A stretch of 64,000 bases of DNA from Candidatus Eiseniibacteriota bacterium (GTDB lineage Bacteria > Eisenbacteria > RBG-16-71-46). A program made the translations under genes and the position numbers. The notes beneath the pieces were generated by a model. The model did no database searches. It saw only the letters and a program-made list of their open reading frames with translations, and was not told the DNA's origin. Shown here in pieces: positions 44,820 through 52,561 of this stretch (positions are counted from its first letter, which is position 1; each line of letters begins with the position of its first letter). The stretch is from the NCBI GenBank assembly GCA_963717935.1, contig CAVQXP010000004.1, positions 1,266,240 to 1,330,239 on the forward strand, written 5' to 3'.

Positions 44820-46376
44820 GTGGTGGAGCTGGCTCAGCGGCCTGTTCGTCCGGCCCCGTACGGCCGGCGGGCGCGCCATCCGTCGCGGCGCGGCAGCGAG
44901 TCGTTCGACCAGCAGGAGGCCCGCGCCATCGCGGAGTTCTCCCGCCACTTCCAGATCACCTTCCACGATCCGGAACTGCTCCGGCTGGCGCTCACGCACC
45001 GCTCGTACCTGAGCGTGACCGGCATGGGCCCGCGCGAGTCCAACGAGCGGCTGGAGTTCCTGGGCGACTCCGTGCTCGGCCTGGTGACCAGCGAGTACCT
45101 CTACCGGCAGCTCCCCGACGAGCACGAGGGCCAGCTCACGAAGACCAAGTCGCTCCTGGTCTCGAAGGCCATCCTGTTCGCGCAGGGCGCTGCTCGATGG
45201 GGCTTGGCCGCTTCGTCCTCATGAGCCACTCCGAGGTCGAATCGGGCGGCCGGCAGCGGCTCTCGATCCTGGCCGACGCCTTCGAGTCGGTGCTGGGCGC
45301 CATCTACCTCGACCAGGGCTTCGAGGAGGCGCGGCGAGTTCATCGAGTACTGGCTGCTGCGCGGCTCGCGCGAGATCGTGGCGGACAAGCGCCACCGCAA
45401 CTACAAGAGCCAGCTGCAGGAGTACGTGCAGAGCACGTTCCGCACGCACCCCGTGTACCGCATCCGCAGCCAGATGGGCCCGGACCACTCGAAGCTCTTC
45501 CTGGTGGAGGTGATGGTCGGGCGGCGGGCGTTGGGTGAGGGGCGTGGCACCGAACAAGAAGGAGGCCGAGCAGGCCGCGGCGCGCGACGCCCTGGAGCGG
45601 GTCGAGCGGCCCGGCGCAGCGCCGCGGCGAGGAGCGCGGAGCCGCGCGAGGCGCGAGCGGACCGCGAGCCGCGGGAGGCGACGTGAGCCGCGGGAGGGAC
45701 GCGAGCCGAGGGAGGGACGTGAATCCCGCGAGGAGCCCCGCGAGTCCGGCGAGCCGCGCGAGGTGCGGAGGAGCCGCGGCCGGATCGCGAGTCCCGGGGA
45801 GTCCGCGAGGCACGCCGGGAGCCGCGCGAGGCCCCCGTGGTTCCGGCGGCGCCGGAACGCGAGTCGGCCGGCTCGGATCGCGAGGGGTTCCGCAAGGCGG
45901 CGGGGTGGCCGCGGCCGCCGTGGGCGGGGCGACGATGAGGCCGACTGCGGCCGAGCCGGTGGTCCGCGCGCGTCGAGCCGGTGGTCGAGCGGATTGGGCG
46001 GCCTGCGGAAGTGGAGCCGCCTCTCAGCGTCTACGAGGAGGACGACATCGAGGAGATCGGCCGGCCGGAGGGGCCGCTCGACGAACGCCACATCGACCCC
46101 TTTGGCATTGGTGCCGCCGAGGAGCCGGTGCTGGCGGTGGAATCCCCGGATCTCGTGGACGAGCCCTGGATCGAGGTGGATCCCGCGCCATCCTGGGAGC
46201 CATCCGACGTCCGCCAGGAGGAGTCCGCGACCGATCGCTTCGAGGGCGAGCCCGGGGCCGAGCCGCAGGCCGAAGAGGGGGCCGAGGAGGACGCGCCAGG
46301 TCCGGGTGCGACGCCGTCGAAGCCTGGACCCGTGGCTGAGCCGCGCTACGGGCGCCGCCGCGCGCGCCGTCGCTGA
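44820..46376 (+). CDS. rnc: Ribonuclease III with long low-complexity C-terminal extension (indels; boundaries approximate)
   Basis: ALTHRS, NERLEFLGDSVLG, ADAFESVLGAIYLD; dsRBD NYKSQLQE...KKEAEQAAA; then EPREGR repeats and an acidic tail. Confidence 0.85.
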
Positions 46377-46389
46377 CGGACGAACCGAA

Positions 46390-46431
46390 AACACGGACGG
46401 GCGGCGAGGACTCCTGCCGCCCGTCCGTGTT
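46390..46431 (+). terminator. Intrinsic terminator-like hairpin after the fab-rnc operon
   Basis: AACACGGACGGGCGGC...GCCGCCCGTCCGTGTT followed by GTT. Confidence 0.75.
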
Positions 46432-46526
46432 GTTGGCGCCGGGACGGTCTCCCGTGCTGGAAGACCGTGGGGGCCAACTGCTCCCCGGGGACGTGGGGAG
46501 TGAGCGGGCCCTGGCGCTTCGGTATT

Positions 46527-46647
46527 ATGAAAGCGAGGGGCTTGCGCCCCTCGCTTCAAGACTGTCGTCACGCACATTCAAGACAGGCCCCTCGGATCTT
46601 CCGTGTCCGTCATGCGGTGACGACAGAAACTGAATCAGTCTGTCGTC
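46527..46647 (-). ncRNA. Candidate sigma54-dependent small RNA (about 120 nt)
   Basis: Lies between a -24/-12 promoter and a GCAA-tetraloop terminator; structured; no convincing ORF. Confidence 0.55.
46531..46556 (-). terminator. Terminator hairpin of the candidate sRNA
   Basis: Minus strand AAGCGAGGGGC-GCAA-GCCCCTCGCTT then TCATAAT. Confidence 0.7.
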
Positions 46648-46658
46648 TCAGTCGTATC

Positions 46659-46673
46659 GCATACCGGATGCCA
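46659..46673 (-). promoter_or_regulatory. sigma54 -24/-12 promoter
   Basis: TGGCATCCGGTATGC (GG-N10-GC). Confidence 0.65.
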
Positions 46674-46794
46674 TCGCCCGAATCCGTTGGCGCTGGAATC
46701 ATATCTTGCTCTCCAGCAACGGATTAGATGGCGTGATCCTGGGGCGCTTCGAGGATCCTGGCCGGAAGCGACTGCGGATGCGGTTGAGACGAAT

Positions 46795-46892
46795 GCGACA
46801 TAGTGTCGCGTATTCGGCGATTGCGATTGTGAACTGCCCAGAGCCACTTCCTGAACCGGGACAGATTGGCGTCGGTTCGTGACAGAATGTCG

Positions 46893-46893
<1 letters not shown>
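46795..46893. promoter_or_regulatory. Three palindromic enhancer-like (UAS) sites GNGACA-N3-TG(T/G)CG(C/T)
   Basis: GCGACAtagTGTCGC 46795-46809, GGGACAgatTGGCGT 46858-46872, GTGACAgaaTGTCGC 46879-46893. Confidence 0.55.
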
Positions 46894-48317
<1,424 letters not shown>

Positions 48318-48415
48318 GGGCTCCCATGATGCGCGTGGGCCTCCCGCGGCGCAAACCGCGGGACCGGGGGGCAGGCTGGCCGCTGCCGCGCGGCGCGTGC
48401 TAGGCTCTCCGGGTG

Positions 48416-50148
48416 ATGGCTTCCGTCGCGCGCGTCCTCAGCCTCATCCTCCTCGCGGCCGCGACGGCGGGGCAGCCCTCAGGGGCGGCCGAGGCCCCTG
48501 CCGTCCCCGGACCTGGCGCTGCCGTGCCCGGTGCGGGGGCCCCAGCCGTGGGCCCCGCACCGGGCGACCCCGCGGCGCTCAGCCGCTACCTCTCCGGGCG
48601 GCTCCTGGAAGAGCGCGGGATGGAAGTGGACGCGCTCGAAGAGTACCTGCAGGCCCTGCGCCTGGACCCCGGGCGGTCGGGATCGAACTCCGGGTGAGCG
48701 AGGTCGCCGCCCGGCTCGGTGAATCGCAGCGCTCTCTCGAGTACGCCGGGCGCGTGCTGGAGCACGACCCCGGCAACGCACGGCCCTCTGGCTCCAGGGC
48801 AGCGCGCTGTTCAGCCTGGGCCGGCCGTGGGAGTCCCTGGAGGCGCTCCGGGCGGCCGTGGCCGCCGATTCGCAGCAGGCGGACTACTGGAGGACGCTGG
48901 CCCGCGTGGCCGAGTCGCTCGATCAGGTCGAGCTGATGGCCACGGGCTGGCGCCATGCCGTCGAACTCGACGACGGCGACGGCGAGGCCTGGTTCCAGTT
49001 GGCCGCGGTCGAGGCCCGGCGGGGCCACTTCGAGGCCGCCGATTCGATGCTGGCGGAGGCCATGGCCCTCAATCCGGTGCGCCCGGGCGCGCTGTTCCTC
49101 GCCGGCTGGATCCAGGATGGCCTCGGGCACCCCGCCGAAGCCATGGGGCTCTACCGCCAGCATCTGGAGCGTCCACCCGGGGGACCAGGCCACGCGCCGG
49201 CGTCTGGTGAACCTGCTCGCGGACGCGGGGAGGCATGCCGAGGCCTACAGGGAGGCCGTCATCGTGCGGCGGGCGCAGCCCGACGACCCGGACGCGATCG
49301 GCGTCGAGGCCGACCTGGCGCTGCGCGTCGGTCATGTGGCGCAGGCCGACGAACTGCTCGATCAGCTGATCGGGAGCCGATCCGGCCGACCCCGCGCGCG
49401 TGGCGCAGGCGGCCGGCATCCTGGTGCAGCGGGGACGCGGGCGCGAGGCCGTGGCGCGGACCGAGGACTGGGCCCGGAGCCGCACCGCGGACTATCGCGG
49501 CCCGCTGCTGGTGGCCCAGGTCCGCTCGGACGACGGGCGATACGGCCGGGGCCGTAGCGAGCCGCGCGGCGCGCCGTCGAGATGGTGCCCGGACTCGCTG
49601 ACGCCCCGTTTCGTGCTGGGTGGGCTGCTGCAGGCGTATGGCCGATTCGCCGCGGCCGAATCCGTGTGGGCGGATCTGGCGCACCGCGGCCGGGCTCCCG
49701 TCCGGGCGGGGCTGCAGCTGGCCTATTGCCGCGAGCCGCTGGGCGACGTGGACGGCGCGGTGAGAGCGGTCCGCGACGTGCTCGCCCGCGAGCCCGACAA
49801 CAGCTCGGCGCTCAACACCCTGGGCTATCTCTTCGCCGATCACGGACCGCGATCTGGCCGAAGCCGAGGACCTGGTGCGGCAGGGCCCTGGCGCAGGAGC
49901 CGGACAACGGCGCCTACCTGGACTCGATGGGTTGGGTCTACTATCGGCTGGGCCGGCTGGCCGAGGCACGCCGGGACCTCGAGCGGGCGGTCGAGCTGAC
50001 CAACGGGGATCCGGTGGTCAGGGAGCACCTGGGAGACGTCTACAAGGACCTGAACCTCATCGAGTTGGCGAGGGAGCAGTACGCGCGGAGCCTGCGCCAG
50101 GACCAGGGCAATGCCAGGGTCCGGGCCAAGCTGTCGGAGTTGCGCTGA
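48416..50148 (+). CDS. Exported tetratricopeptide-repeat protein (indels)
   Basis: Signal peptide; TPR motifs such as ALNTLGY, AYLDSMGWVYYRLG, EHLGDVY across frames. Confidence 0.8.
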
Positions 50149-50189
50149 CCGCATGGAACCCCATTTCCCGGGCGGGGTAGGAACGATGG

Positions 50190-50825
50190 GTGAGGAGCCT
50201 GTTGCCGACTGATCGCGACGCATCGGCGCCTCCGATCCTGAGCCTCTCGGACGAGGATCTCATGGACCGGGTGGCGGTGGACGACCAGAAGGCGTTCCCC
50301 GAGCTCGTGCGCCGTTTTCAGGGCCGGGTCACCAATCTGGTGAGCCGGATCCTGAACGATCGGGAGTGCGCCGACGACCTGGCGCAGGAAGTCTTCGTGC
50401 GGGTGTTCGTGCACCGCCGAAACTACCGGCACGGGTCGAAGTTCTCGACCTGGCTCTTCACGATCGCCGCCAACCTCGCGAAGAACGAGATCCGGCGGCG
50501 GGTCCGTAGACGCAACTGGTTCAGTCTGGATGCGCTGGAAGAGACGCTGAAGGACCGCGCGATCCAACTCGCGGATTCGACGGAGAGCCAGGAGACGACG
50601 CTCGAGCGGGAGCAACTCCAGGCCGCCGTGGGGCGGGCGATCGCGACGGTGCCGGAGAAATACCGGCTGGCCCTGGTCCTGCGGGACATCGAGGGTCTGC
50701 CTTACGAGGAGATCGCACAGGTGCTGGGCATCCCGGGCGGGACGGTGCGCTCGCGCATCAACCGCGCTCGGGGCATGCTCAAGCACAAGCTCCAACCGCT
50801 ACTCGCGAAAGCAGGAGACTCATGA
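50190..50825 (+). CDS. ECF sigma factor (RpoE-like)
   Basis: DLAQEVFVRV, FSTWLFTIAAN, YEEIAQVLGIPGGTVRSRINRAR. Confidence 0.93.
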   Translation: MRSLLPTDRDASAPPILSLSDEDLMDRVAVDDQKAFPELVRRFQGRVTNLVSRILNDRECADDLAQEVFVRVFVHRRNYRHGSKFSTWLFTIAANLAKNEIRRRVRRRNWFSLDALEETLKDRAIQLADSTESQETTLEREQLQAAVGRAIATVPEKYRLALVLRDIEGLPYEEIAQVLGIPGGTVRSRINRARGMLKHKLQPLLAKAGDS

Positions 50826-51409
50826 TCTGCGACCGGGCCCGGCGGCTCTTCGGGGCCTGCTGGGATGACGAGCTCACGCAGGCCGAGCGGGATGGGCTCG
50901 AGGGCCACCTCGCGTCGTGTCCGCGGTGCCGGGCGGAGTACGACGAGTTCTCTCGCGCCCTCGAGTTGGCGGCCTCGCTGCCCAGGATCGAGGCGTCCGC
51001 CGATCTCATGGACCGGGTGCTGGCACGCTCGCGCCGCGCCACGACCGCGCCGGACATCGTCCGTGAGGCCGGCGCGCGCTGGGTGCCCGTTGCCGCGGCG
51101 GTCGCGGGCGCCGTACTCGTGGTCGCACTCGTGCTCGTCGGGTCCCGCCTCCAGTGGAGAGCTCCCGCATCGAGCCTGCCTCCCCAGATGGTCGTGATCA
51201 ATGAGCCACGGGAGCCCGTTCTCGTGCCGAAGCCCAGCGCGAAGCCGGGGGAGCGCCGTCCGGAGACTTCCCGGGGGAACCCCGAGAGCCTGTTCGACCC
51301 CGACAAGAACGTCGAGTTCATCCTCGACCCAGTCAAGCTGCATCGCGGCCGCGCCACGGTGAACAGGCGGCCTGACGCCGAGGGACAGCAAGCGACCATC
51401 ACCTTCTAG
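50822..51409 (+). CDS. Zinc-finger (zf-HC2) transmembrane anti-sigma factor
   Basis: HLASCPRC, one TM helix, translationally coupled to the sigma gene. Confidence 0.88.
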   Translation: MICDRARRLFGACWDDELTQAERDGLEGHLASCPRCRAEYDEFSRALELAASLPRIEASADLMDRVLARSRRATTAPDIVREAGARWVPVAAAVAGAVLVVALVLVGSRLQWRAPASSLPPQMVVINEPREPVLVPKPSAKPGERRPETSRGNPESLFDPDKNVEFILDPVKLHRGRATVNRRPDAEGQQATITF

Positions 51410-51427
51410 AAGAAGGCATCTGCCGGG

Positions 51428-52561
51428 ATGACGACGCAGGGCCATCGCGCGGCGCGCCGGGCGGCCTGGCTGGCCGGCGTTTTCGTGTTGCTCCTCGCTC
51501 CGGCTGCCCGCCCCCAGGGCGCGCCATCCCCTCTGTCGGTGAACGTGGATGAGATCGCGAACCGGGCCGGGCGCAGCGTGGTCACGGTCTTCGCCCAGCG
51601 CACGGAGACCCAGGCCAAGCCCAGCGCCAGGCGACCCGCGAGCAGCGTGCACACCCGGGTCGGTTCGGGCGTGGCGGTGGAGGAGAGCGTCATCCTCACC
51701 ACCGCGAGCGTCGTGCTGGGCGCCGAGCGCATCTTCGTGCGCACCTCCAACGGCCTCCAGGTCGAGGCGCAGCCGGTGGGCCTGGATTTCGTCTTCAACG
51801 TGGCCCTGCTCCGCGTGCCGGACCTGCGGCTTCCGCACCTGCGACCCGCCCGGCGCCCGGCCCAACTCGGCGACCGGGTGATCGCGGTGGGGACCTCGTA
51901 CCGGGCGCAGTCCACGCAGTCGGTCGGCACGGTCGAGTACGTCTACCGGGAGCCACGCACCTCGCTCCTGCAGCTCACCAACATCGTCTACCCCGGCAAC
52001 AGCGGCGGAGCGGTGCTCGACACCCAGGGCGAGTTGGTGGGCATCGTGCAGGGGGAATTGGGCTCGCCCGACCCCGGCGCGGGCGGGAGCATCGACCGCC
52101 GTCCGAGCGGCATGAGCTTCATCATGCCCATCCAGCAGGTGTGGCCCGTCTACGAGAGCCTCAAACGCGACGGGCGTGTGCGCCACGGCTATCTGGGCGT
52201 GAGCACGCGGGCGGAGGTGGTGCGGAGCGAGATCGACAACGCGGACGTGGGACTCGGTGCCCGGGTCGAGAACGTGCAGGCCGGCGGCCCGGCGGCGCGC
52301 GTGGGACTCAAGCCCCAGGATCTCATCGTGGGCTTCGAGAGCGAGCGGGTCGAGTATCCGGAGCAACTGGCCCGCTGGGTGGCCGAGACGCCGCCGGGGA
52401 CGGTCGTGGCGCTGGTCTGGGTCCATGGCGATGAGCGGCGCTCCGGCCGCGTGAGCCTGGTGGAAGCGCGTGACTCGCTGCCCGCGTGGGCGCTGGGCGG
52501 TCTGCGCTGGGCCCCGGTGCCGAGTCCGGCGCCTGCCACGGGCGGCGGCCCCCGGCGCTGA
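51428..52561 (+). CDS. HtrA/DegP-like S1C-PDZ protein with degenerate catalytic triad
   Basis: GSGV, PGNSGG, GYLGV plus PDZ; His and Asp positions substituted. Confidence 0.85.
   Translation: MTTQGHRAARRAAWLAGVFVLLLAPAARPQGAPSPLSVNVDEIANRAGRSVVTVFAQRTETQAKPSARRPASSVHTRVGSGVAVEESVILTTASVVLGAERIFVRTSNGLQVEAQPVGLDFVFNVALLRVPDLRLPHLRPARRPAQLGDRVIAVGTSYRAQSTQSVGTVEYVYREPRTSLLQLTNIVYPGNSGGAVLDTQGELVGIVQGELGSPDPGAGGSIDRRPSGMSFIMPIQQVWPVYESLKRDGRVRHGYLGVSTRAEVVRSEIDNADVGLGARVENVQAGGPAARVGLKPQDLIVGFESERVEYPEQLARWVAETPPGTVVALVWVHGDERRSGRVSLVEARDSLPAWALGGLRWAPVPSPAPATGGGPRR

Follow-up and report, generated by a model that had tools for sequence, protein, structure and literature searches.

A family-restricted candidate small RNA cassette of a known regulatory type in Candidatus Eisenbacteria

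What is encoded between the gene for an NtrC-family activator and the convergent rnc gene in an uncultured member of Candidatus Eisenbacteria? The locus lies in a 64,000-nucleotide stretch of DNA (the window), for which an earlier note had proposed a complete sigma54 transcription unit without a protein gene, driven by the adjacent regulator. We find a -24/-12 site, a structured sequence of about 120 nt and no conserved ORF, and we consider the ~120-nt unit very probably an activator-driven sigma54 sRNA, judging from the sequences of the locus and its relatives. That this candidate sRNA acts by pairing of its loop with mRNA has, in our estimate, an even chance of being correct.

Anatomy of the locus

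All features lie on the minus strand unless stated otherwise. The gene of the enhancer-binding protein (46893..48317), recognized by NCBIfam matches on its ORF pieces, encodes a receiver, a sigma54 AAA+ and a Fis-type HTH domain, which agrees with the regulator class named in the note. Both this gene and rnc are frameshifted in the source assembly (G000) and intact in the congener G004, whose 475-aa activator orthologue carries Response_reg, Sigma54_activat and HTH_8. Many genes between 36500 and 56000 of the window are frameshifted, likely by assembly errors; fab is also intact in G004. The source genome encodes rpoN, and no kinase gene was seen adjacent to the activator among its neighbours in the window. 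Beyond the activator, at 48413-52561, lie a TPR gene, an ECF sigma factor, an anti-sigma-like gene and a DegS/HtrA protease. On the other side, the region 44820-46376 corresponds to a 587-aa RNase III frame in G004 (L196:6757-8520), with a nuclease domain (115-244), a dsRBD (259-323) and a tail of ~260 aa without a Pfam match. Long RNase III open frames recur in most genomes of the family and of f3.

The stop codon of the activator gene shares one base with the first of three enhancer sites. Three palindromes, two of them 21 bp apart, had been described here, and this description holds for the spacing and for two exact copies of GNGACA-N3-TGTCNC: site 1 (46879..46893; -220 here, ~-214 in most relatives) and site 3 (46795..46809; -136 here, ~-125 in relatives), which is a perfect palindrome. 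Site 2 (46858..46872; -199 here, ~-194 in relatives), 21 bp from site 1, is degenerate, with 2 of 10 positions mismatched. The exact motif occurs at four distinct sites in the 3.0-Mb genome, two of them at this locus. Downstream lies a sigma54 -24/-12 promoter, TGGC-N8-TGC (46659..46673), with the correct GG-N10-GC spacing, and the distance from the -12 element predicts a transcription start at ~46647. Just one other sigma54-like site in G000 has any such enhancer site, and the RNA therefore looks like the main direct output of the activator. The other site (C2:78317, plus strand), which has a single near-match to the enhancer motif at -213, precedes the gene of a probably secreted protein, and is a possible second target of the same or a paralogous activator.

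The predicted transcript starts with a variable 5' leader (46627..46647) of unconserved sequence; the distance from promoter to stem ranges from 21 to 150 nt in the 18 loci compared. A long hairpin follows (46562..46626), in which covariation supports a basal helix (46626-46616 with 46571-46562) and an apical helix with a bulged base and a GG/CC closure (46607-46601 with 46587-46582), separated by a variable middle. The apical loop (46588..46600) contains an invariant CCGAGGGG at 46595-46588; in the predicted fold its CC pairs with its last GG and GAGG is most exposed, a point against the pairing model discussed below. The fold of a 127-nt stretch has an energy of -59.9 kcal/mol (z -5.9), which none of 200 shuffles equalled. 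At the 3' end, an intrinsic-terminator-like hairpin (46529..46557) has the 11-bp stem and GCAA loop previously described, and its stem is supported by covariation, but the U tail in the source genome is weak and a strict terminator scan of 46200-47000 gave no call. A neighbouring plus-strand hairpin 3' of rnc (46390..46431), outside the RNA, is likely the convergent rnc terminator.

Two further resemblances were observed at the locus. The invariant basal helix (46562-46571 / 46616-46626) looks like the enhancer half-site TGTCG / CGACA, and the start of the G000 leader (46647-46640) duplicates the basal 3' arm and is a potential pairing partner of the 5' arm.

Conservation and distribution of the RNA family

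A DNA search of 61 genomes yielded matches mostly to the activator 3' end and to the hairpin and terminator, with the spacer unmatched, and the conservation maximum falls on the RNA rather than on its flanks. With a model (R1) built from 18 sequences, the RNA was found in 42 of 89 genomes of one Candidatus Eisenbacteria family at E < 1e-10. A second model restricted to the hairpin and including variant units (R2) matched 44 of 102 genomes of the order; all 44 are among the 89 family genomes, in 17 of 28 genera, and the 13 genomes of the order's two other families gave no match. The RNA was not found in genus g22 (18/18 genomes) or genus g16 (8/8); absence from an incomplete genome does not prove that the RNA is lacking. 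One genome, G030, in which the activator and promoter lie at a contig end, was counted as RNA-positive in the duplex-energy, RNase III tree and independent-pairs analyses described below.

Outside the family, three of 91 genomes in a phylum sample gave weak R1 matches (E 0.004-0.007). Weak R1 matches in G012, G020 and G022 disappeared with R2 and were dropped, and, of the three phylum-sample matches, the one in the order likewise had no R2 match. Of 38 matches in a metagenome motif scan, 36 were ordinary family members; those from a pattern scan of a wider contig collection were attributed to chance, as 0 of 80 among the matches listed fit R1. Nothing in Rfam came near its gathering score for the window or for 14 homologous loci, the best match among the latter being asX1 at one locus (37 of 70 bits). 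The unit is thus undescribed in Rfam, in line with the novelty suggested for it earlier. An available RNA run consists of contigs, one of which, from a relative, spans the locus, and carries no information on expression.

The structure is supported by covariation in both the long hairpin and the terminator. When the 42 members are aligned to the model, 95.7% of the cells form pairs, compared with 41-52% in slid registers, and double-sided changes occur in 20 of 32 pairs, compared with 10.1 after shuffling, in an alignment that, being fitted to the model, favours it. Unfitted MAFFT alignments, used as a cross-check, have double-sided changes in 16 of 35 pairs and, in another, in 9 of 18 (4.3 when shuffled); kinship among members inflates all such counts. 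The terminator hairpin has double-sided changes in 10 of 11 pairs and is 99.4% paired. The apical loop, which the note had not picked out, is the invariant element: CGAGGGGCC is present in all 42 aligned members and is preceded by C in 41, as measured on members that were collected by similarity, and CGAGGGG is kept in tandem and variant units too. We presume that the loop CCGAGGGG is a seed or recognition element. The GYCG/CGRC bases of the basal helix are also invariant, which suggests that the stem is read by a protein or nuclease.

Some loci depart from the single unit. Tandem hairpins, each with the loop, were observed in G017 (L188:1506-1690) and G021 (L195:1648-1812), the first loop of G017 alone among the 42 having U ahead of CGAGGGG, and a second hairpin type stands alone in G016 (L306:2470-2541, minus strand). 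In variant units the closing GG/CC is changed to GA/UC or GG/UC, and CUGA/UC takes the place of CAYGG/CC. As these closing pairs are swapped while CCGAGGGG is kept, the variants support the closing helix and mark the loop as the functional part.

The regulatory region is conserved together with the RNA. Of 43 homologous loci, 42 have a sigma54 -24/-12 site, whose -12 element is a variant in one of them; the single miss is a locus with just 74 bp upstream. Enhancer sites with at most one mismatch are found in 39 of 42 loci (0.4 expected by shuffle), at fixed spacing in clusters near -214, -194 and -125. The activator gene lies directly upstream of the RNA in 38 of 42 loci; three of the misses are at contig ends and the fourth is G017. 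Downstream, rnc is found in 37 of 43 loci, with five truncated loci and one unexplained case (G010). Promoter, enhancer sites, structure, terminator and synteny, whose loss in relatives would have told against the earlier proposal, are thus all kept.

In carriers, the activator and the RNA lie between rnc and the TPR gene. In 19 of 28 loci from R1-negative family genomes rnc is joined directly to the TPR gene; six of the others are truncated, two are unresolved and one (G016) has the activator with a variant hairpin. A tree of RNase III with 69 rows, 6 of them belonging to another family, requires the presence of the RNA to change 10 times, at least four of these changes falling on well-supported branches, and the cassette has therefore been repeatedly gained or lost. 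From synteny and this joint gain and loss we infer that the activator binds the palindromes and activates the putative promoter. Two exceptions count against a strict link between activator and RNA: G017 retains enhancer sites, promoter and a tandem RNA with just a remnant of the activator, and G016 has enhancer sites and the activator without a recognisable sigma54 site. At L370 (G026:C129:1-600) the activator 3' end is followed by what by eye resembles an IS transposase, and the RNA is on another contig.

A related module was observed on two near-identical short metagenome contigs (L383:274-342, plus strand; L393:448-516, minus strand), where the apical module is carried by another long stem. 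Upstream of the module are a sigma70-like promoter, identified by eye, and a short ORF; downstream is a Sak4-like gene (phrog_124), and there is no sigma54 site. R2, trained on neither contig, gives them 39 and 34 bits, compared with 15-17 bits for chance viral matches, and the fold has a z of -2.45; they were found by a 23-letter motif for which about one chance occurrence was estimated in that collection. The hairpin is absent from two viral relatives of the phage-like ATPase. Five matches of a viral scan scored just 15-17 bits and were set aside as chance, and none of 142 further viral matches has the family hairpin. At about even odds, the phage-like hairpin is a real copy of the RNA module.

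Candidate targets and competing explanations

Two genes of G000 have a complement of the loop at the ribosome-binding site. This complement overlaps the Shine-Dalgarno sequence in the leader of C4:729745 (L618:1501 onward), whose product, with two treble-clef zinc fingers (zf_Tbcl x2) and a cold-shock domain (CSD), has a match in 29 of the 30 family genomes tested for it. At C4:1624634 (L206:2785-3135, minus strand) it adjoins the Shine-Dalgarno sequence of an HTH gene; the product is a basic, HTH_Tnp_1-like protein of 117 aa. It has matches, mostly a single one per genome, in 83 of the 89 family genomes, and is labelled a transposase by the sources, but is more likely a regulator or nucleoid protein. 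Among genomes with the RNA, exact CCC(C)UCGG precedes the HTH gene in 5 of 38 and the zinc-finger/CSD gene in 4 of 21; among the others the counts are 0 of 32 and 0 of 8. No perfect target site common to the whole family was found.

Predicted leader-loop duplexes, with energies taken per genus and the discovery genera removed, are more stable where the RNA is present: -12.0 vs -8.5 kcal/mol for the zinc-finger/CSD gene (12 RNA-bearing vs 7 lacking genus groups, p 0.002) and -11.4 vs -9.2 kcal/mol for the HTH gene (15 vs 12, p 0.009); the target genes were chosen after seeing matches, and genera are not independent. The same comparison for 182 background leaders gave -9.4 vs -9.6 kcal/mol (p 0.54). 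An energy difference as large was reached by 0-1 of 200 shuffled probes when the discovery genomes alone were left out. An independent-pairs test had just two supported pairs, too few for significance, and in it a binarised M32 peptidase leaned like the candidates. Genome-wide, genomes with the RNA show no excess of seed sites (2.70 vs 2.50 per Mb, p 0.69), and among 40 hand-picked leaders with a seed complement no gene was common to more than two genera.

Other candidates were rejected. The M32 peptidase fails as a third target on its energies (p 0.62), and the top duplex match in G000, C2:331345, is a false start within a frameshifted ORF. By eye, and in a biased selection (L566-L605), many leaders have CCCCUCGGA at the ribosome-binding site before signal-peptide-like starts.

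The RNA of the same cassette could instead, like CrcZ or GlmY, serve as a decoy for a non-CsrA protein, with the loop and the basal helix as recognition elements. Both elements are strictly invariant, tandem units would add titration capacity, the lack of a perfect family-wide mRNA complement would be expected, and a similar hairpin stands in the phage-like leader. We nevertheless consider a decoy rather unlikely. Known sponge RNAs carry many binding sites, whereas there is usually one unit per genome here; Hfq, RapZ and TROVE/Ro60 are absent from G000 (93% complete), with Hfq absent in 6 of 6 genomes tested; and leader complementarity tracks the presence of the RNA for two genes. A more elaborate version of the pairing model, which we regard as improbable, is that of a portable cassette gained and lost whole, whose G-rich, Shine-Dalgarno-like loop silences, independently of Hfq, regulators that bind nucleic acids (the zinc-finger/cold-shock protein and the nucleoid-like HTH protein) and whose hairpin a phage has taken over in an early transcript as a hijack of that circuit.

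Titration of CsrA/RsmA through ANGGA motifs, as hinted in the earlier note, is very improbable. The genome does encode csrA, the two ACGGA motifs of the source copy are where they were reported (46610 and 46604), and at least one ANGGA occurs in 36 of 42 members. However, just 11 of 42 have at least two, the other 31 having one or none, and CANGGANG is present in 9 of 42. The GG is predicted to pair with the 3' CC (mean probability 0.74, fold favoured in 40 of 42), variant units swap CAYGG/CC for CUGA/UC, and GGA is absent from the invariant stretch. An alternative GGA/UCC mini-hairpin, with the register slid by -1, is possible in 98% of cells; it is without covariation and its fold is disfavoured. 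The accessible part of a published survey predicts few hag-repressing CsrA proteins in Eisenbacteria, though its authors caution that binding of other RNAs is possible for these proteins (PMC13443453).

Conditional antisense control of rnc, in which the loop pairs with the terminator 3' arm and causes read-through into the RNase III gene, we judge to be still more doubtful. The convergent arrangement anticipated in the note is general (37 of 43 loci), the loop in G000 is identical to the 5' arm of the terminator, and pairing of the loop with the 3' arm is possible in 88% of cells. Against this, the loop/3'-arm pairing shows no covariation, 33 of 42 members lack its central A-U pair, the terminator covaries with its own arm (10 of 11 pairs), and the RNA and rnc are separated by a second hairpin. 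Hardly credible is a small-peptide gene or an untranscribed conserved DNA element: the 11-codon ORF reported earlier is present, with its ATG at 46613, and of the 35 units with a loop-spanning ATG ORF 20 use the commonest frame (the other two frames 11 and 4). However, none of the ORFs is conserved, such an ORF is lacking in 42 of 77 units (in a survey whose pattern missed 3 of 80 loci), frames differ, indels occur, the loop is invariant at every codon position, and G-U wobble pairs together with terminator covariation point to RNA.

Proposed action and relation to known RNAs

The best overall explanation, to which we give an even chance, is a cassette of activator and sRNA in which the loop pairs with mRNA leaders. 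We propose that phosphorylation by a kinase would switch the NtrC-type activator on, and that the activator would then bind the three palindromes ~125-215 bp upstream and open the sigma54 promoter, as suggested by the anatomy of the locus and by the established biology of enhancer-binding proteins. A non-coding RNA of ~120 nt would be made and would stop at its own terminator. Its long hairpin, a structure derived from covariation, would stabilise the RNA and display the invariant CCGAGGGG loop. This loop may pair, independently of Hfq, with C-rich CCCUCGG-like stretches at or next to the Shine-Dalgarno sequence, presumably lowering translation; repression rather than activation is favoured because the target sites overlap the ribosome-binding site. 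The zinc-finger/CSD and HTH genes would be the candidate targets.

The closest parallel is PxrR (Nla19)-Pxr of Myxococcus xanthus, which the Eisenbacteria RNA resembles in the regulator, the spacer, the sigma54 promoter, the order with respect to the sRNA, and the absence of Hfq. As far as the accessible texts describe it, the Pxr locus has an NtrC-like gene, a spacer of ~260 nt with an enhancer region and a sigma54 promoter, and a stem-loop sRNA of ~108 nt; the first loop is essential, the RNA co-evolves with the regulator, some species have several paralogues per locus, and the Myxococcus host is without Hfq (PMC5684412; PMC5568312; for the layout also PMC11928866 and PMC10217877, likewise from their accessible parts). 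However, the Pxr model (RF01812) did not match the RNA locus in five genomes at E up to 10, and the first stem-loop region of Pxr is C-rich, according to a primer table in the supplement of PMC5568312, in contrast to the G-rich Eisenbacteria loop. In addition, no kinase gene was seen adjacent at the locus of the window, and the phylum differs. The Eisenbacteria RNA is not a Pxr homologue.

With Qrr and GlmY-GlmZ only the regulatory logic is shared. In LuxO-Qrr of Vibrio and GlrR-GlmY of Enterobacteriaceae an enhancer-binding protein drives a sigma54 sRNA promoter, according to the accessible text of PMC10162802 and PMC3045617, and these RNAs need Hfq or RapZ, according to that of PMC7073468, whereas the Eisenbacteria RNA is without an Rfam match, Hfq or RapZ. 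An SRP or 6S RNA identity was rejected, as both genes are elsewhere in G000, and a Y RNA identity likewise, as the TROVE (Ro60) partner was not found in G000. CsrB, RsmY, RsmZ and the CrcZ of CbrB-CrcZ are two-component-controlled RNAs without an ORF, CrcZ being sigma54-driven. The repeated protein-binding motifs of these sponges are absent here; there is usually one ANGGA, located in the stem, unlike the several unpaired or loop-borne GGA motifs of Csr/Rsm RNAs.

Comparison supports the architecture well, and we regard the locus as a genuine cassette of activator and probable sRNA that is restricted to one family, belongs to a known regulatory type and is apparently undescribed; no description of the RNA was found among the top-ranked papers of the openly readable literature, large motif-discovery supplements being outside that scope. 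If correct, this would give an uncultured phylum, where we found none described, a well-defined family of regulatory RNAs, and would parallel PxrR-Pxr independently in a GC-rich host that lacks Hfq, bearing on chaperone-free sRNA action. As the RNA is accompanied by a promoter, enhancer sites, a likely activator, a seed and candidate targets, the circuit could be rebuilt in E. coli. The near-even division into carriers and non-carriers within one family would provide a natural experiment for target finding, for what is likely a regulatory RNA of uncultured soil and sediment bacteria.
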